Origin: Chrysomallon squamiferum
Lineage: Eukaryota > Animalia > Mollusca
NCBI GenBank assembly: GCA_012295275.1
Contig: CM022679.1
Location: 30,380,001 to 30,444,000 of the forward strand
Length of the DNA stretch: 64,000 bases
Reading direction: 5' to 3'
Numbering within the stretch: the first letter of the stretch is position 1; each line of letters opens with the position of its first letter. This document shows, in pieces, positions 47,787 through 62,991 of this stretch. The notes beneath the pieces were generated by a model that saw only the letters and a program-made list of their open reading frames with translations, had not been told where the DNA came from and searched no databases. A program made the translations under genes and the position numbers.

Positions 47787-50700
47787 TAATTTAGTTGAAA
47801 CAAAATGTTAAATACAGATTCTTTTACACTCAGTGTTGTAAAAAGATGTAGAATTAGAATATTGACAAAAGTTATCAAATTACTTTATATCTTTATATAC
47901 CGTCCATTTCCTGTCTATCCACAATTTTTATTTTATTTTTAAACCTTCTCCAGACAAACTGTAGCTTAGTGATTAAACCATTCTATTTAGGAATACACTC
48001 CATTCCCTAAAAGCTGCCAATTAATATTGGTGTAAATTGTTATTATTATAGTTTGGGTAGTTTGTTTTGAGGGGGAGTTTGTCTATTTTGTTTTTTTTTT
48101 TTTTTTTTTTTAAATGCAACCTCTTATATTTTCATATAAAATCAATCATAAACATTTTAGTGATTTTATTTGAAATCGCTGACTCATTAACAACACTGTA
48201 GTAAGAATGTGTTTATCAGAGATCAGCTAATGAAAGGGAAATTGTTTTAGTTTGGTGTAGGTCTAGGTTACTTTCAGCATGCTGTCATCAGAAGCACATG
48301 CATGCATGTTTGTCATGACACTTTCTGTTACATGTTGTACAAGATTGTTTTTGTCATGCTTCAGTTATTCCTCTTCTGATAATGACTGGTGGATTTTTTT
48401 GGAAAATTATTTCTGACCTCAACTGAACTGAACAGAAATATCAAGGTCATTCACAGAGCTTTATATGCTTGAAGATAACTTACAATCTTTAATAATAATT
48501 TTAAAAAACCCAGTTAATAATCATGATCAATAATTATCTTTGGTTCATCATTTTTTTTTTTTTTTTTTTTGTCCAAGCCATTTGCAGTTTACATAATAAA
48601 TTATCTTTGGAGAAATCATTATCATTATTATTAACATTATTATTAACTTTGAAAAGTTATGGGTTTGGGGGTGGCTTATAATTTTAGCAATAATTTTCAT
48701 GTACATATTCTTATTGGGTGGGGGTGGGTTTGTTATTTTGGATTTCTGCTTTAACAAGAAAAAAAAAAAAAATAATAAATAAAAACATGCTTGACTGTAT
48801 GCATACATATGTTTATGTGTGTGTGTCTGTATGACAGGTTTGTATAATCTGGGTTTTTGGGGTTCTAGAGGGTTGTGTTGTTTTTGAATTGTTCAGTACT
48901 GGGTTATTAAAGACTTGCTGTATAGTCTTGTTTCTGTTGTTAAGCTGATTTTGAACAGAATTCATACTAGTGATTGTTACATAATATTAGAAGTATTTTT
49001 TAGGTTTTGATTTTGCTGAATGTTGTGTTACACAACTGAATGCTGTTTTAGGTTTTCTAATGGTGCGTTTTAGAATTGTTGTGTGTCATGTTCACAGCTC
49101 CTGAATGCTGTTTTAGAATTAGTGGATGTTGTGTTTAGAATTGCTTTTTTTGTGTTGGATTGTTTTTTGTGGTGTGATATCAGAATTCAAGTGGCATGGT
49201 TAGTATTGGATGGATTGTGCTTGTTAGCTAATGTGAAAACTACAGAGTGTTTGCTATCAAAGGTACTGTACCAGTTATTTTCTTTTCAAAACCTCTCTGT
49301 TTATTTATTAATTTATCCTTTTTTGATCTCTTATCTTTTCTATTATTTTTTTCTCTTTTCTTTTTTTATAAATCTCTTCTTTTTCCATCTTATTTCTGAA
49401 CTATGAATTTTATTCATAAAAACTAAATTTTGATAGATTGGGGTTTATTAGGTTTTTTAAATCTAAAATTAAACAGTACTATAACACAAATATTTTTGAA
49501 ACAGAATAATATAAATATTATAAGATAGAATAATTACATGTTGCCAGATTTTATTTTAAATTTTTTTTTAAAAAGTTAATGTTTAAATATTATGTAGAAT
49601 TTTTCTTGTTTTCTCCATGTGTGGTCATGTGACTTGTTCTGTTGATAGGTTCCACTGATAGTCATGATGGAGCTCCGGCAGCTGGACGTAGCACTGACAC
49701 TGACACCACCAGGTAAATACATTCTTAATAAACAAAACAAAATTTTCTTTAGCATCATCACTAGAGCCCATCAGATCTTTTTATTTTGTATTTTGGATGT
49801 CGTATGTCAGTTTCTCTGAATTTTTGTTAAAAAACCTTTTCTTCAGCGACTTGTGCACTTTTATTGGCTGTGTCTTAGAACAGGATATACTGCTGTCCTT
49901 TTCATTCAGAAGAACAATTTTTATTAGCATCTAGTATTCTTTTTGTGCTATTACACACAGTGCACAGAGAAAACCTGCAACAAGAATTTTTTATAAGCTG
50001 TACCTTGGGACAGTATGTCCTTTACATCGGCAGCTAGGAATATTTTATCTACAGTTGCCCACTGACATAACAGTACATACCACTGGGTTTTTAAGAGATA
50101 ACCTACTTCATTAGCAGCTAGTATTCTTTTTCTGCTCTTATATAAATCTTTTCCAGATGAAAAACTATTTCATTAGTAGTAAGGATCCTTTCATTTAGCT
50201 CTTTTTTTCTGCCAGGATAGTATATGCATATCTTTTTCAGAGGAAATCTTCATCATTAACCACAGGGATTGTTTTTATGTGCTCTTTCACATATTTTATG
50301 AAATATCCCAAATAGCTATCTACAAGGGTTGTTCTTGTATCACAGCACATTACAAGTGTACTTTATTATCACTGGTTTATTCCACAAAAGTTACCCAAAT
50401 TGTGACTTCTCTTTATGTAGTGGTTCATTTCTTACAGTGTAAGTAGAAGTTAGGTGAAATAGTTTTGTAAATGTTGTAGTAAATAATTACCGGAGCTTTT
50501 TACTTCTTATCTTGGCCATTTTGTTTTCTCCATTATGCATCTCTCCACCTTTTGCTTTCTTTCACTGATGTATTTTTGCCATCTTTGTAAGTGTTACTTT
50601 TGAAGAAATGAATAAGTAATTCTTAGTTCCTAATGTCATGTTTGTTTACAGGGTATTTTAAACTATTATTTCCCTGTTATTTTATTTAGAGTGGTGATGA

Positions 50701-51631
50701 AGAAGGAGATCCACAAGAAAACTATAATTGGCGATGACGGACGAGAAGAAACGTACATCAAAGAGGAATCTCAGGTACAACAGGAGAATGACCCCCCAGA
50801 GGAGCTCAGAGGCACCATGCAGGTACATAGATGTGTGTGATTGTGTATGTGTGAGTGTGTGTGTGTGAAAAAGAGAGAGAGAGAGAAAGCATGTGAATGG
50901 ATACATTTACAGTAGTATACTGACTGGAAGTATACATATAATGCATCATATATCTGTGAGTGTGTACAAATGTGTGTGTAATTTTAACATAATATTATTA
51001 CAAAGAAGTGATAAATTAATTAATTATAAAAATGTTTAATGTTGGGATCAGTAAGAATACTGACAGACTTCAGAATATTAAACTTCCATTACAGAGAAAG
51101 ATGTATAAGTAAGATGAGGTGGACATGATATTTTGAGGCTGGTATACCAGTTTTATGAATTCATTTGTTTATTTATCAGCTTGTTTCTTTCAAGAATTTA
51201 CTTGTTTATTTACTAACACACTAGATATATATAGATATGTAAAGATTGTGTTTGTTTCTTTATGAAATTTCTTAAAAACCAGACCCTAACAAAGACAGAA
51301 TTCCCAAGAAACCAAATGATTTCTGTGCATCCGTAATTTATTAAGTAGAGGAATTTAAAACTTTGTTGATTTTTTTTCTTTGTTCTGACATTTTGGTTTT
51401 GAGAAGAATCACTGCTTGTTTGTTCATTTATTTGCTTACTTGTTATTGTTTATTTTAATTATTTTTGTTACAATCAGTTTAGAGTTTTATACAAGTGCAT
51501 ATATTTTGCTGCCTATTTGTTTGGATGCTTATTTATTTATTTTTTTATTTCAGGACATTATTGACCAGTTCATGGAGAGTGAACCAGTAATTCCACAGAT
51601 CAAGGATACCCACATGGATGATGATGTGTAA
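3531..51631 (+). CDS. 3' portion of a giant ankyrin-like gene (Ank2/UNC-44 type), 5'-truncated by the window; 13 predicted coding exons
   Basis: Phase-compatible GT-AG exon chain: 3531-8222, 13580-14636, 15480-15566, 17757-17873, 19761-19802, 21232-33411, 34260-34727, 36366-36452, 37040-44599, 47413-47454, 49649-49712, 50690-50822, 51554-51631(TAA). Giant acidic exons, SSLxEFExLERE and DSL repeats and the terminal PEELRGTMQDIIDQFM resemble what I recall of protostome giant-ankyrin tails. No ANK repeats are inside the window. Confidence 0.72.
3984..7650 (+). repeat. Coding tandem array, 30/33-nt units encoding KEPSPEL(V/I)E(E)R, roughly 100-110 copies
   Basis: Directly visible in DNA (aaggaaccaagyccagaactagttga) and protein; interrupted by TYVGIESSVDFPADTLxREEQY spacers. 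Copy number is estimated from length. Confidence 0.97.
13580..14636 (+). CDS. Coding exon with four ExLxDGxV-type motifs; contains a 1-nt frame break near 13819
   Basis: Acceptor gttccag|TC at 13579/13580 with gctaat branch-like site; donor AAAG|gtaaat at 14636/14637. Two overlapping ORFs (13558-13821, 13787-14644) have the same protein character; 1057 nt = 3n+1. Confidence 0.8.
15480..15566 (+). CDS. Candidate cassette micro-exon (87 nt) encoding ECRELPESGFAKRQVKKVTWMPGHVEMTA
   Basis: ctctag|AA acceptor, CAG|gtgaac donor, open phase 1-1 frame, higher GC than its flanks. The acceptor lies in a degenerate local repeat, which lowers confidence. Confidence 0.5.
17757..17873 (+). CDS. Cassette exon (117 nt) encoding VDRFTDYTDTPVITVTEDNSIPPDEDDYVAYFGIKVDRK
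   Basis: gctaac branch site, tttcag| acceptor, AAG|gttaga donor, open, phase 1-1, acidic composition and VDR motif as in neighbouring exons. Confidence 0.8.
19761..19802 (+). CDS. Micro-exon (42 nt) encoding ASLEQDKDIYPDAA
   Basis: Polypyrimidine tract plus aagcag| (NAGNAG) acceptor, CAG|gtacag donor, phase 1-1. Confidence 0.65.
21232..33411 (+). CDS. Giant exon 2 (~12,180 nt, ~4060 codons, phase 1-1), Glu-rich
   Basis: Uninterrupted ORF of more than 4000 aa, open upstream to a tagtagcag acceptor cluster (21223-21231); donor CAAG|gtagaa at 33411/33412. Confidence 0.9.
26980..30060 (+). repeat. Coding tandem array, ~48-nt unit encoding EEYKEPVETEQYEQEP, about 60-65 copies, degenerate extension to ~30560
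   Basis: Directly visible (gaagaatacaaagaacctgttgaaacagaacagtatgaacaagaacca). Copy number is estimated from length. Confidence 0.97.
34260..34727 (+). CDS. Coding exon (468 nt, phase 1-1)
   Basis: ttaaccag|AT acceptor, consensus GAAG|gtgagt donor, in frame with ORF 34325-34789. Confidence 0.85.
36366..36452 (+). CDS. Micro-exon (87 nt) encoding DFESGKDAMDKLSTSSSEVAQLEDVIDDK
   Basis: T-tract plus gccag| acceptor, AAG|gtacac donor, open, phase 1-1. Confidence 0.75.
37040..44599 (+). CDS. Giant exon 3 (7560 nt, phase 1-1), S/T/E/D-rich with SSLxEFExLERE and DSL repeats
   Basis: ttttcatag|AT acceptor, CAAG|gtactt donor, 2573-aa ORF, length divisible by 3. Confidence 0.9.
38052..38301 (+). repeat. 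Near-perfect 81-nt triplication encoding KSETQQTFETAEQITSRTESTETREEI
   Basis: Three consecutive, almost identical copies. Confidence 0.95.
47413..47454 (+). CDS. Micro-exon (42 nt) encoding AEGEGDLYEDSEDS
   Basis: aagcag| NAGNAG acceptor, CAG|gtgcca donor (weak), purine-rich island, phase 1-1. Confidence 0.65.
47662..47786. repeat. (ATT)n/(ATTT)n microsatellite; similar tracts near 8490, 12630, 45750, 59540 and 63696
   Basis: Directly visible. Confidence 0.9.
49649..49712 (+). CDS. Coding exon (64 nt, phase 1-2) encoding GSTDSHDGAPAAGRSTDTDTTR
   Basis: gatag| acceptor, CAG|gtaaat donor; supplies the phase change needed by the next exon. Confidence 0.8.
49890..50345. repeat. Cluster of degenerate repeat fragments, possibly relics of a SINE-like element
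   Basis: About five related copies of ..ttcattagcagctag(g)rwtcttttt..tgc.. near 49920, 50025, 50108, 50170 and 50252. The element identity is not verifiable here. Confidence 0.4.
50690..50822 (+). CDS. Penultimate exon (phase 2-0) encoding VVMKKEIHKKTIIGDDGREETYIKEESQVQQENDPPEELRGTMQ
   Basis: ttatttag|A acceptor, CAG|gtacat donor, open frame. Confidence 0.88.
51554..51631 (+). CDS. Terminal coding exon encoding DIIDQFMESEPVIPQIKDTHMDDDV*
   Basis: tttcag|GAC phase-0 acceptor and TAA at 51629-51631. Confidence 0.88.
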   Translation, partial: DIIDQFMESEPVIPQIKDTHMDDDV

Positions 51632-56232: not shown

Positions 56233-56579
56233 ATGGATGGTGGACGTCTAGATAGAGAATTCTTTGACAGAAATGGTGAATGTCTAAGCAGAGCTCTGAT
56301 AGGTCAAATTTTGGTTCGTTTGTCTGAAGGGAAACGATTGGCTGGTCGTATTGTGGAGACTGAAGCATACTTAGGACATGTAGATAAAGCAGCCCATTCT
56401 TTCAAAGGACAGACAAATCGCAATGCTGCAATGTTTATGCAACCTGGCACTGTTTATGTTTACAATATATATGGAATGTACTGTTGCATGAACATATCCA
56501 GCCAAGGTATATTTTTAAAAAATATTTGAAACAACAGATTTAATTATTAGCTCTCTCTCTATATATATATATATATATG

Positions 56580-56675
<96 letters not shown>

Positions 56676-57428
56676 GGCTGATTAGGATATACAAAATCTC
56701 AAGAAGGCTTGCCTAGAATGCAAAAGCTTTATTCACTGCAATTACAAAGGAATCTAACAATAGGAATCTAATATATGCAGAATATGTTTAAAAAAGAAAG
56801 AAAAGTAAAACAGCAACAAAAACATATTGTGTAACATGCATCTTACAAATGAAAGTCAAATTAGAGTGAAAATTGTTTTAGTGAAACTGTGTGTGTGTGT
56901 GTTATTAGTATGTGATTATATGATATAGTTAAAATAACTGATAAACCATTATAACCATTGTTTGACCTCTAGTTATGAAATCAGTTACTTTATTTATTGA
57001 AATGTTTACAATACAAATAAATAAAAAATTCTGTATATTTATTTACTTGAGGTGAGGGTTGTGCTGTTCTCCTTCGAGCTTTGGAACCCGTTGAAGGGAT
57101 AAAAGAAATGTCAAATTTCCGCTGGTCGAATCCAAAACCCGATTTCAAGGTCAAGGACTTGTGCAATGGTCCAGCAAAACTGTGTCAGTCACTGTCCATT
57201 TCAAAGGTGACATTTGACCAAAGGGATTTGGTTACCGATGACAACTTATGGGTGGAAAAAGGAGATGATTTCCCAGATTCTATGATAGTGCAGACAAAGA
57301 GGGTGAATGTGAAATATGCTAAGGAATGGTCGACAGAACCTCTGAGGTTTTATATCCTAGGCAACAAATTTGTGAGTGTGAGAGACAAAGAAGCAGAGAG
57401 ACTGTGTGAAGAGAAATGTTCACTTTAA
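56233..57428 (+). CDS. MPG: DNA-3-methyladenine glycosylase (AAG/MPG family), single domain, ~216 aa; join(56233..56506,57052..57428)
   Basis: Family motifs GRIVETEAYLG, AAHS, MFMQPGTVYVYNIYGMYCCMNISS, AVLLRALEP, LCNGPAKLCQSL, PLRFY; phase-1 intron with a GAG acceptor. Confidence 0.93.
56584..56670. repeat. (AG)n microsatellite in the MPG copy 1 intron
   Basis: Directly visible. Confidence 0.95.
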
Positions 57429-59059: not shown

Positions 59060-59170
59060 TTGTCTCCTCTTCGATAAGCACGCTATCGTACAAATCGTTT
59101 CTTGCTGTTTTGTTTTCATTTCTTTCATTGTGTATTTTGCGGAATCGTACCCGGAATTGCCATAGGTAAT
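59060..59170 (+). promoter_or_regulatory. Candidate promoter and non-coding first exon of MPG copy 2
   Basis: CpG-enriched 58.5-59.3 kb, CCGGAA core at 59151, donor TAG|gtaatt at 59165/59166, acceptor ttgcag| at 60038 before ATG 60063; same layout as copy 1. Confidence 0.4.
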
Positions 59171-59585: not shown

Positions 59586-60062
59586 TTTAAAATCAGCTCT
59601 GTTTCTTTTTCATTTGTATGGAATGGCTTAAAGGTGAAAGGTTAAAATGGGGGCGTTCAGATATTAATTTTTATTGTTCCATTCTTTTATTACTGTTGCT
59701 AATAGTTATGGTAAATCACCCAAGTCAAGACTGTGACAGTAAAATAATACATTAAAAGAGTCAAAACTATAACCACAAATACACTTAAAAATGTGCAGAA
59801 CAAAAATGTCAAATATTATTCACTTACAACAACAACAACAACAACAACAATAATAATCAATTAATTAATATGTATTTTGTTTCTAAAAACCCCAAACTAT
59901 GAAAGTACATTCTTTTAAGTACTGAGCTTCATATTTCTTGTTCATAAACAATTACAGCTTCAAATCATCCTAAAATATATTTTACAGTCATGCAAGCATT
60001 TTATTCCATTCAAATTATAATTATTTTTTATTTTGCAGTTGTTGAAATAAACTATTCAAAAA

Positions 60063-62991
60063 ATGGCTGAAGGCCCCATACGCCTTACAAAGGAATTCTT
60101 TCAGAAAAGTGGTGAAGATCTAAGCAGAGCACTGATTGGTCAGATTTTAGTTCGACTGATAGATGGAAAACGACTGGCTGGTAGAATTGTTGAAACAGAA
60201 GCCTATCTGGGACGGGAAGACAAAGCTGCTCACTCGTACAAAGGCCAGACGCAGAAAAATACAGCAATGTTTATGGAACCAGGAACTATATATGTTTACA
60301 ATATATACGGCACATACTGCTGTATGAACATATCTAGTGAAGGTGAGCTGGGAACTTGACAGTTGTACAGATTATATATATCTGTCACTCTGTCTATATC
60401 TTACTCTGTTTGTGTGTTTATGTGTGAGTGTGTGTTTTTAAATTAAACATTTTTGTGGAAGCAAGTTTGGTGACTTAACATATTGTCAAAATATATAATT
60501 AAAATACTAATTCTTTAAAGAAAGAAAAAAGGATTTCATAACCTATTTTTTTTACTTTTTTTTTTTAGAGATATATTACTAAAACTTACCTGTGTATGTG
60601 TGTGTACACACAAACACACCTGTAAACACACCTGTAAACTGATGTATGTTTTTGTAGGTGAGGGGTGTGCAGTGCTGCTTCGAGCTCTGGAACCACTGGA
60701 AGGTGTGAACGACATGGCAGCATTACGCTGGTCTAATCCGCGACCTTCGTTCAAGATGGTGGACTTGTGCAACGGACCGTCCAAACTGTGTCAGTCACTT
60801 TCCATCTCAAAGGCAAACTTTGACCGGCTTGATCTGGTAACCAATGACAACCTGTGGTTGGAGAGAGGCGGCGAAGTGCCGGAATCCATGATAGTTCAGA
60901 CAAAGCGGGTGAACATAGACTATGCAGAAGACTGGTCGGCTAAACCTTTGAGATTCTATCTGCTTGGAAACGACTTTGTTAGTGTCAAAGACAAACAGGC
61001 AGAGAAGAAAATGGCTGGTGATGATGATTTTTCGGCAGGAGATATAGATGACGTGCCTTTGTCTTTGCTAAGATACGGTTCTTCAAATGCGAAGAACAAC
61101 AAACAGAATGCAAGTGAAACACTGGAAGAAACGACAAGTGGCGACGAAGTGAAGAGTAGTCCAGAAAAAGAAAGTGAAACACAGAAATCCACAGTTATGC
61201 CATCGAGGTCTTCGGAGAGCAGCAGAAAGCGAAGACAGGCAAGTCCAGAAGAAGCAGCCAGTGGCCGAAAGGTCACCAGGAGCAACACCAAGTCTCAGAG
61301 TGCTTTGAAATCCACTGCTTCAGCATCCCCACAGAAAGACAGCAGCACGTTAGTGTCCAAAGACGAGAACTCTGGGGTCACTCCTGCAAAAAGAGGCAGG
61401 GGTAGACCGAGAAAAAACACTGCAGCTGTTGCCATGAAGGAAAACAAAGCTGTGGACAATTCTGAAAAAACTTTGCCTTCAGCAGTTTCAAGCAATGCTA
61501 ACGATGATGATGATGATGATGATGAAGACAATGATGATGTTCACGAGGATTTAGCTGAAGCAGATGAAGAGAAAGCTGAGGAGAACCTTGAAAAGCAAAA
61601 AGAAGATGAAGATAAGTCGTCCTCTTCGCAGCCTCTGCGTGCGAAGCGAGCTGTTCGAGTGATCAGTGTTCCAAAGGGATACCCTCTGCCTCAGGCTTTC
61701 TTCATGTGTTCCAGTGTGATGGTCGCCAAGGGTCTTCTAGGCCAGCGACTCGTCCGAATTCTCGACGGAAGGAGGATTTCAGGAAAAATTGTTGAAACTG
61801 AAGCCTATCTGGGGGTCAAGGATAAAGGGTCAATAGCATACAGAGGCAAAACAGCTGAAAATGCAGCCATGTTCAAACCTCCTGGAGCATTCTATATTTC
61901 ATCCGTGTATGGATATTATTTCTGTTTTAGTATATGCACAGAAGGTTAGTATTTAATCGTTAGCTGGAACTAGGTTGACCTGTGTTAGAATTTATTCATT
62001 TTCCTTTCTTAAGCTTTTTTTAACATTAAGTTAAATGCACAAGACCCTGACAGTTATCAGTGAAGATTTGATGTATATGTTACGATAATATGTATATGTT
62101 AAAATAATATTGTAACGAACTATGGTAATAAAATATTCTGACTATCTGAAATATGTTTGCTAGTAAAAAAAAAATTCCTGCTGTTCATTGTTACATGTAT
62201 TTAATAGTCAGTATTCTGTCATATTTTCTTGCAAAGTTAAAATATAGCTGTGATGTGAAAAGAAATAATTTTAATACATTTTTATGTTTCCATAGCTGTA
62301 TATTTTTCATGTGTGTGTATATATGTATCAGTTTTTTAATTTATTTTTTAAATAAATGTTTACATTACTTAAAGATACACTAAAAATAATTCAAAATGGT
62401 TGTTTAATAGCTTGGAATTGTTTCAGATTCATTTAAACAGAGTCATTGTGAACTTATTAAGAATCTTTTAAGATGCAGTTATTAAATTAGTTATCATTAA
62501 GACTTAAAATTTAAATATACATATATAATATATATATATATATATATATTTTTTTTAATTTGCTGAGTTGTTTATTCAGTTATTCATTCAGATTGTTTTT
62601 TTTCCTCACAGATGATGGAGGTGTTGTGTTACTTCGATCACTCGAAGCAGACGAAGGTCGCGACCTCATGATGAAAAATCGATTCCGAAAATCGATTCGC
62701 GACACGGAAATCTGCAATGGACCGTCGAAGCTCTGTCAGGCCTTGAAAATCGACAAAGCGACATTTGGAAACCAAAACATTGCCACATCGAACAAACTTT
62801 TTATTGAGCGGGAGGACACTGTGAGCCCAAACAACATTATCTCCACCAAGCGGATCATAACAGAACTGGACCCAGAGGAGTGGGCCAATCAGAAACTGAG
62901 GTTCTACGTGTTTGGCAGCGACTGTGTTAGTTTGAGGGACCCAGAAGCCGAAGCACCTCTGAAAAATTCACAGTATGACCTTGACCAGTGA
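60063..62991 (+). CDS. MPG: Tandem two-domain MPG-family glycosylase with AT-hook linker, ~648 aa; join(60063..60342,60658..61944,62612..62991)
   Basis: Two complete sets of MPG motifs (IVETEAYLG, LLR, CNGPSKLCQ, LRFY) in one reading frame; both introns are phase-1 GT-AG at the equivalent position in each domain; total 1947 nt = 649 codons. Confidence 0.9.
61389..61415 (+). other. AT-hook motif KRGRGRPRK in the inter-domain linker
   Basis: Canonical RGRP core flanked by basic residues. Confidence 0.85.

Follow-up and report, generated by a model that had tools for sequence, protein, structure and literature searches.

A tandem AAG-type DNA glycosylase with an AT-hook motif in its linker and a rebuilt second pocket in vent snails

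Introduction

The locus considered here raises the question of whether two alkyladenine DNA glycosylase (AAG, also termed MPG) domains are carried on a single protein chain and, if so, what the second of them does. The window, meaning the whole 64-kb stretch of DNA that was analyzed, had been proposed to encode a chromatin-tethered, two-headed glycosylase that could target AT-rich DNA or handle two lesion classes or clustered lesions (hereafter, the original prediction). Gene structure, relatives, linker, and pockets are taken in turn below, and the roles that domain 2 may have are weighed where the evidence bears on them.

Gene Structure and Transcription

Three exons, separated by GT-AG introns, join into an open frame of 648 amino acids in which AAG/MPG domains 1 and 2 flank a 225-aa linker that carries an AT-hook motif (Table 1), in agreement with the original prediction of two MPG domains and a linker in one frame. 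The Pur_DNA_glyco profile (PF02245) matches every exon, and exon 2 twice, with an E-value of 9e-48; scores of the individual exon translations (63-162 bits) are above the curated threshold of 27. The further claim that the fusion lies inside one exon is borne out by a stop-free frame from 60519 to 61949 in which the linker sits between the last part of domain 1 and the first half of domain 2. The AAG family trait of a single catalytic domain per chain does not hold for this protein, which contains two full domains that are 44% identical to each other.

The best match in protein searches was LOC121378974 of the vent snail Gigantopelta aegis (XP_041363322.1, here P0001), a 654-aa RefSeq "uncharacterized protein" in which two stretches are matched by the Pfam AAG profile and by TIGR00567. 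This protein, an automatic model only, shares the architecture, the conserved block around the hook, and the pocket changes of the window protein, with domains that are about 80% identical to their counterparts and with no poly-Asp run. The next match, the ENA protein P0002, corresponds to exon 2 and has the same middle-exon layout. Given these matches, the window probably comes from a snail of peltospirid type that is related to G. aegis. The searches returned 603, 143, 1232, and 7398 matches, of which the best 120, 120, 120, and 150 were used; the 442 distinct proteins obtained from these best-ranked matches are biased toward animals, and more divergent tandem proteins could rank lower.

A single-domain AAG paralogue is encoded 3 kb 5' of the two-domain gene and is 75% identical to domain 1, 41% identical to domain 2, and 76.9% identical (166 of 216 residues) to the G. 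aegis protein P0237. G. aegis also has a single-domain paralogue (XP_041363451.1). Neither the upstream paralogue nor the pocket changes in domain 2 described below were part of the earlier, sequence-only account.

Table 1. Features of the two-domain AAG gene and its upstream neighbor (window positions; aa, amino acid position in the protein).
Feature	Position	Strand	Basis or conservation
Upstream single-domain AAG paralogue, 216 aa, canonical pocket	56233..57428 (exons 56233-56506 and 57052-57428)	+	Profile and residues
Exon 1 (start codon, then the N-half of AAG domain 1)	60063..60342	+	Frame, profile match, splice to exon 2 seen in X1-X3 RNA
AAG domain 1, aa 5-210	60075..61007	+	Canonical pocket; 79.6% identical (164/206) to G. 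aegis domain 1
Intron 1, GT-AG	60343..60657	+	Absent from RNA contigs, retained in X5
Exon 2, domain 1 C-half, linker, and domain 2 N-half in one frame	60658..61944	+	Profile match, RNA; layout same in P0002
Linker, aa 211-435, S/D/E/A/K-rich, predicted disordered	61008..61682	+	40.9% identical (92/225) to G. aegis
Short motif DVPLS.L after domain 1	61050..61070	+	Conserved, 3/3 orthologues
Basic patch SRKRRQ, aa 282	61221..61238	+	G. aegis has TKRKQQ at the aligned site
Conserved linker block, aa 322-362 (T-P-x-K site, AT-hook, KEN-box-like motif)	61341..61463	+	73% identical (30/41) to G. aegis
AT-hook motif KRGRGRPRK, aa 338	61389..61415	+	PF02178, below cut-off; conserved
KEN-x-x-x-D motif	61437..61457	+	3/3 orthologues
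Poly-Asp run NDDDDDDDEDNDD, aa 375, from GAT microsatellite	61500..61538	+	Not conserved as a run
AAG domain 2, aa 436-636	61683..62952	+	Catalytic residues kept; 80.6% identical (162/201) to G. aegis domain 2
Domain 2 Ile replacing base-stacking His136	61833..61835	+	3/3 orthologues
Domain 2 Ser replacing Tyr159	61899..61901	+	3/3 orthologues
Domain 2 Ser replacing guanine gatekeeper Asn169	61929..61931	+	3/3 orthologues
Intron 2, GT-AG	61945..62611	+	RNA loose end at 61944 equals exon 3 start
Exon 3, domain 2 C-half and stop codon	62612..62991	+	Frame, profile match, RNA

Five sequencing runs from two studies contain 51-56% of the sampled words, and contigs of four of them (X1, X2, and X3, which are RNA, and X5) were compared over positions 60630-61990. 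X5 covers both intron flanks and looks genomic because both introns are retained and the spacing (464, versus 445 in the window) is near the unspliced value. The first splice was recovered in all three RNA runs as a spacing of 156 nt, exactly the spliced distance, and the second in two (X2 and X3), where the loose end at 61944 carries the first letters of exon 3; the X1 contig ends at 61910, short of this junction. No contig in the four runs extends across the whole of exon 2, all of them breaking at the poly-Asp-coding GAT repeat, such that the transcript proposed to span both domains is upheld for both splices but not by any single contig over the repeat. This break would be compatible with the two domains not being one protein, either through separate or alternative transcripts or through a misjoin at the repeat, and the two-domain protein of G. 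aegis is also just a gene model. Such an explanation is highly improbable in view of several observations. First, the genomic-looking X5 breaks at the identical repeat, which points to an assembly break and not to a transcript end. Second, the contigs that flank the repeat in X1 and X2 have enough unplaced letters for an overlap of ~29 bases, and depth is similar on either side of it (26.7 versus 22.3 in X2). Third, coding constraint is evident in the linker on both flanks of the repeat, and the same one-exon junction, without the poly-Asp run, is found in two other genomes. A total of 30 differences were listed among the run contigs, 26 synonymous and 4 non-synonymous, with all 4 of the latter in the linker. 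Within the linker, 20 of 24 variants are synonymous against an expectation of 22% (all changes; p = 2e-10) or 34% (transitions only; p = 1e-6), p-values that are too small because the variants share haplotypes and are linked rather than independent. A stop in the linker, which the original prediction had named as evidence against itself, did not appear: the run contigs contain neither a stop nor a listed indel. We infer a single transcript spanning both domains.

Origin and Distribution of Tandem AAG

Intron 1, intron 2, and the intron of the upstream paralogue occupy the same codon position within their AAG domains, and this common position suggests an origin of the three domains by local duplication. 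The three introns have no sequence similarity to one another (local scores of 28-38), so the duplication is not datable from them. In the tree, domain 2 did not place with domain 1, and its grouping with domain 1 and the paralogue was not rejected (AU p = 0.199); a clade of the six domains was neither recovered nor rejected. Domain 2 is 41-48% identical to its neighbors, compared with 75-89% between domain 1 and the paralogue. In G. aegis, identity between domain 1 and its paralogue is 86-89%, and the two cluster together, a hint of gene conversion. The stem of the domain 2 branch measures 1.25 substitutions per site versus 0.13 for the tips, and identity between the window and G. aegis is 80.6% for domain 2, 79.6% for domain 1, 76.9% for the paralogue, and 40.9% for the linker. 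On sequence grounds, domain 2 diverged fast early and is now constrained equally to domain 1. A local duplication may have fused two AAG copies, the second of which would then have changed fast and become fixed. No close stand-alone domain 2 was detected among proteins of 30-358 aa, the best 120 of 1232 matches all being ≤50% identical, and of 587 pattern matches for DNA of relatives in metagenome contigs none was confirmed.

Among the 442 proteins from the matches listed, two near-complete AAG domains were found in P0001, in Solemya velum KAL5018871.1 (P0003), and in P0314; P0002, P0036, and P0417 are junction pieces composed of a C-half, a linker, and an N-half, and in P0036 and P0417 this layout is as in snail exon 2. 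Like the snail protein, P0003, P0036, and P0314/P0417 have two AAG domains per chain and at least one rebuilt pocket; unlike it, the other tandem proteins have short linkers and no AT-hook. The substitutions themselves are not those of the snail: head 1 of Solemya has Y162M, N169K, and R182K, and both heads of P0314 have Y159H, Y162F, and N169F/Y. The Solemya pair groups with itself (98/93), as does the P0314 pair (99, quick tree), indicating that tandem AAG arose at least three times separately, and a single origin for all tandem AAGs, which was also considered, is unlikely given this self-grouping of each pair. Solemya has a chemosymbiotic lifestyle. A connection between tandem AAG and symbiosis, prompted by Gigantopelta and Solemya both being chemosymbiotic, was considered and is not supported; peltospirid genera are reported to have gained symbiosis separately, according to the available text of PMC7895826.

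The two sequenced peltospirid genera are reported to have diverged 66-116 million years ago (available text of PMC7736800 and PMC7895826), and if the window derives from the other sequenced peltospirid genus, the architecture dates back at least to that split. A description of a two-domain AAG with an AT-hook was not found in searches of the open-access literature. The word "glycosylase" is absent from the main text of the vent-snail genome papers that were examined, the supplements of which may list the gene, and a review of glycosylase accessory domains (PMC9266487) mentions neither AT-hooks nor tandem arrangements. The suggestion that the architecture is undescribed stands with respect to the open-access literature but is qualified by the tandem AAGs of S. 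velum and P0314 and by the existence of the G. aegis RefSeq model. The gene is a real, conserved, and apparently undescribed variant of a known enzyme family.

The Linker and Its Motifs

The basic patch SRKRRQ (aa 282), the motif KRGRGRPRK (aa 338), and the acidic run NDDDDDDDEDNDD (aa 375) are all present as had been claimed, and their conservation differs. SRKRRQ is a stretch that we take to be a candidate nuclear localization signal. The acidic run is a species-specific microsatellite that is absent in G. aegis, in which the acidic character of the stretch is kept. Compared with G. aegis, the block around the hook is 73% identical versus 41% for the whole linker. KRGRGRPRK has the (R/K)GRP core and basic flanks that serve as the core criterion for an AT-hook. 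It scored 14.3 bits (E = 0.038) and 13.8 bits against the AT-hook profile PF02178, below the Pfam gathering cut-off of 17.4, and no PF02178 match was listed for the orthologue P0001. The pattern RGRP[RK] arose in 0.026% of 100,000 shuffles of the linker and is kept in 3/3 orthologues, and among 444 proteins (matches listed) the AT-hook pattern was confined to three: the window protein, P0001, and P0002. Beside the hook, the KEN-x-x-x-D motif, which was present in 1 of 440 other proteins (matches listed) and in 2.1% of linker shuffles, presumably fits the KEN-box consensus. A S/T-P-x-K site, which we assume to be of the CDK type, directly precedes the hook in two of three orthologues and is missing in P0002.

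AT-hooks occur in insect thymine DNA glycosylase, a member of a different enzyme family, a point for which a literature check gave no confirmation. The hooks of HMGA proteins have the RGRP core, basic flanks, and preceding S/T-P-x-K that are seen in the snail (consensus TPKRPRGRPKK) and have been reported to have AP/dRP lyase activity (available text of PMC11354804); unlike HMGA, the snail protein has a single hook embedded in an enzyme. The basic patch and the AT-hook may hold the protein on nuclear DNA via the minor groove, without sharp site choice. GC content across the 64-kb window is 21-42% throughout, and one hook in such a setting would be expected to tether broadly rather than to target. 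Targeting of AT-rich DNA, as originally proposed, is thus not favored by one sub-threshold hook in a window of this composition, and the handling of clustered lesions is unsupported by this analysis.

In a full-length model of the G. aegis protein, domain 1 has a pLDDT mostly >90 and residues 225-435 are <50 (pTM 0.46), a prediction consistent with a disordered linker; the thin alignment and patchy confidence over domain 2 make this model uninformative on domain packing. Such a linker may let both heads work independently. Through the T-P-x-K and KEN-like motifs that lie next to the hook, activity of the riskier head may be restricted to certain phases of the cell cycle.

The Pocket of Domain 2

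Both snail domains are akin by sequence and fold to human AAG/MPG (PF02245, TIGR00567; PDB 1EWN, 1F4R, 3QI5, 7XFH). The human enzyme has one domain after an N-terminal tail in 298 aa, in contrast to the two domains, AT-hook linker, and H136I/Y159S/N169S pocket of the snail protein. The AlphaFold model of G. aegis domain 2, built with 122 relatives, has a pLDDT of 93.8 and matches human AAG in Foldseek with an E-value of 1.5e-26 and TM scores of 0.84/0.92, although its alignment consists of canonical relatives and the model leans toward their shape. According to this model, domain 2 of the orthologue folds as AAG.

Residue numbers are those of human AAG, taken from an alignment to PDB entries with the gibbon protein as proxy; identity to gibbon AAG is 54% for domain 1 and 41% for domain 2. 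In domain 1 and in the upstream paralogue, E125, Y127, H136, Y159, Y162, N169, and R182 are all present, i.e., the site is canonical. The catalytic residues E125 and R182 and the intercalating Y162 occur in both domains, and domain 2 retains E125 (61800-61802), Y127, D132, Y162, G163, Y165, C167, L180, R182 (62635-62637), GPSK, and R261; the P0002 sequence stops before L180. Of the canonical pocket Y127/H136/Y159/N169, which is complete in domain 1, domain 2 keeps Y127 alone (Table 1), and it has the further nearby changes A134G, A135S, and G174D. Domain 2 is an AAG family member by descent and fold and not a canonical-specificity member.

Residue frequencies elsewhere were taken over the other AAG domains and fragments of proteins from the matches listed, without the rows for the window, P0001, and P0002. 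Among these, H136 occurs in 427/442, Y159 in 432/443, and N169 in 429/445. Ile136 (1/442), Ser159 (1/443), and Ser169 (1/445) each occur in a different protein of the matches listed, and each of these is a single-domain protein (P0367, P0337, and P0419, with N169S in P0419 accompanied by Y159T); Gly169 was found in nine other domains of the same matches. These single occurrences show that some single-domain enzymes in nature tolerate one such change, which, with the nine Gly169 cases, counts against a shift in specificity. The single occurrences suit an explanation in which the two domains share one ordinary function, the pocket changes offset one another, and the fusion serves only to increase dosage or avidity in a habitat where DNA is readily damaged. 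The three AAG domains at the locus, suggestive of selection for dosage, would fit this explanation too. It is nevertheless unlikely, since no other domain among the ~443 in the matches listed has more than one of H136I, Y159S, and N169S, and since domain 2 has departed so much further from its neighbors than domain 1 and the paralogue have from each other (41-48% versus 75-89% identity).

In human AAG, the lesion base sits between Y127 and H136/Y159, and N169, termed "strictly conserved," helps to keep guanine out (available text of PMC3075667). According to the parts of PMC5363859 available, N169S raises the excision of undamaged A 3-fold and of G 30-fold with damaged-base activity equal to wild type; it is a G:C mutator in yeast and is selected against, 2 of 8 lines having inactivated it. 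N169S and N169G have also been used in engineered guanine base editors (gGBE), in which the dead control combined H136A with E125A and Y127A (available text of PMC10317176). Snail domain 2 has in common with the engineered variants of these two studies the Ser169 that opens the human pocket to guanine, and differs from them in that H136 and Y159, which the engineered N169 variants keep, are both lost in a change that is naturally fixed in three genomes, and in that their G163R is not present (G163 is kept). In a computational study, the pocket rings aided catalysis on neutral lesions and hindered it on cationic ones (cited in the available text of PMC4041443). No study of the triple change H136I/Y159S/N169S was found in the literature searched.

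Possible Roles of Domain 2

The reading favored here, to which we assign a probability of about one half, is of a chromatin-tethered, two-headed AAG in which the second head is predicted to be active with its specificity shifted toward alkylated or bulky guanine lesions. Domain 1 would flip and remove the usual substrates (3-methyladenine, 7-methylguanine, hypoxanthine, and ethenoadenine). In domain 2, Y162 would flip the base, Y127 would stack on it, and E125 and R182 would carry out cleavage; without N169 the pocket would admit the 2-amino group of guanine, and without the H136 and Y159 rings it would be larger and would act more weakly on neutral adenine lesions. Together, the three losses suggest that domain 2 would favor alkylated or bulky guanine adducts. 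A point against this reading is that cutting of normal G is mutagenic and counter-selected in yeast, such that domain 2 must restrain itself somehow. The originally proposed idea of two lesion classes gains support, at the level of sequence, from the rebuilt pocket and from purifying selection on domain 2. Also against the favored reading, loss of two of the three stacking rings could equally cripple catalysis.

That possibility leads to an alternative in which domain 2 serves to bind and cuts little or not at all, flipping out and holding a lesion, an abasic site, or a modified base so as to shield the product, pass it along, or provide a second grip that aids the processivity of domain 1. 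Two of the three stacking aromatics and N169 are gone, with A134G/A135S and G174D nearby, and human AAG itself is reported to bind ethenocytosine tightly without cleaving it (available text of PMC3075667). The divergent Solemya head lacks Y162 and R182 and one head of P0417 lacks E125, indicating that such heads can decay catalytically. We regard a binding role as doubtful, however, because E125, D132, R182, Y127, and Y162 are all retained in domain 2 of both the window and G. aegis despite the stem of 1.25 substitutions per site, and because E125 is required for chemistry and not for binding (available text of PMC5363859).

A more radical alternative is a programmed role, in which domain 2 would purposely excise normal guanine or a naturally modified base, whether for epigenetic turnover, for local mutagenesis, or to attack repeats or foreign DNA; the hook and cell-cycle motifs would confine this activity, with domain 1 as the partner for repair. 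The natural N169S is the known guanine-excising change, the hook block is conserved together with its phosphorylation-like and degron-like motifs, and routine repair is already covered by the separate canonical paralogue. The toxicity of N169S activity in yeast (available text of PMC5363859) and the prospect that the loss of H136 and Y159 cancels the gain from N169S make such programmed removal improbable.

Implications

Returning to the shifted-specificity reading, its boldest form, which we offer only tentatively, is that evolution has made of domain 2 a glycosylase directed at guanine, a natural counterpart of the N169-opened enzyme engineered for guanine base editing, held on a tether with an AT-hook and cell-cycle motifs. 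Its target, a guanine adduct or even normal or modified G, would lie outside the range of every AAG described so far. On this view, repeated duplication and pocket rebuilding in vent snails, in Solemya, and in a third eukaryote may be a general route to new glycosylase specificities. AAG has been regarded as a one-domain enzyme, and here a natural, selected copy lacks N169 and two stacking rings while its catalytic residues are kept. That tandem AAG arose separately at least three times, on each occasion with a rebuilt head, suggests a pattern that has been overlooked. The most testable feature of the gene is its second active site, rebuilt in nature: domain 2 offers a ready test of how the AAG pocket sets specificity, it may serve as a scaffold for deaminase-free base editors, and it may point to a lesion or modified base in the DNA of vent animals that has so far gone unrecognized.

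The 5' end of the two-domain gene and its neighborhood

RNA contigs of the two-domain gene carry approximately 128 bases 5' of the start codon, whereas only 23 bases (60040-60062) lie between that codon and an acceptor-like site at 60039. The gene may have a further exon upstream that is non-coding and terminates at a donor-like site near 59165. Within the coding sequence, position 61198 is T in the window but C in all four sequencing runs compared over this interval (three RNA runs and one that appears genomic), a difference that replaces Met with Thr at residue 274 and leaves the reading frame unaffected. Either the window carries a rare allele here or its assembly is in error at this base.

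Features of the window outside the coding exons of the two-domain gene
Feature	Position	Strand	Remarks
Giant exons, rich in Glu	3515-44724	+	open frames of 1576, 4077, and 2577 aa
Small exons following the giant exons	near 50634-51631		
Single-domain AAG paralogue	56233-57428	+	2.6 kb upstream of the two-domain gene
Possible non-coding exon	about 59060-59165		

The single-domain paralogue, in which the N-terminal tail is nearly absent, has as its counterpart in Gigantopelta aegis a protein of 217 aa (P0237). Repeats within the giant Glu-rich exons include ERKEPSPELV and EQEPEEYKEPVETEQY, and three tested pieces returned no Pfam match. These exons are reminiscent of the giant exons found in a giant ankyrin.

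Other composite AAG proteins

Sequence searches also recovered further AAG proteins of composite architecture (residues in human AAG numbering). In Solemya velum, a tandem AAG of separate derivation (P0003) has a short linker, and its first head carries Y127F, Y162M, Y165K, N169K, L180M, and R182K; P0036 has its C-half changes in common with this protein, and likewise its junction layout. P0314 and P0417 constitute a third tandem family with Y159H, Y162F, and N169F/Y in both heads, and Ser stands in for the catalytic E125 in one head of P0417. Gene models from bees, ants, and a wasp (P0131, P0133, P0134, P0138, P0141-P0144, and P0176), and likewise a beetle model (P0123), combine one AAG domain with an additional C-half. 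In several of these insect models the first copy shows R182K or an altered H136, and the extra C-halves are possibly duplicated alternative last exons merged by annotation.

Lastly, AAG is fused to an adenosine-deaminase-family domain (PF00962) in P0190, P0195, P0201, P0204, P0209, and P0211-P0213, some of them metagenomic, and all eight carry N169G. This change is employed in guanine base editors (PMC10317176). These proteins are naturally occurring deaminase-glycosylase fusions that merit separate study.
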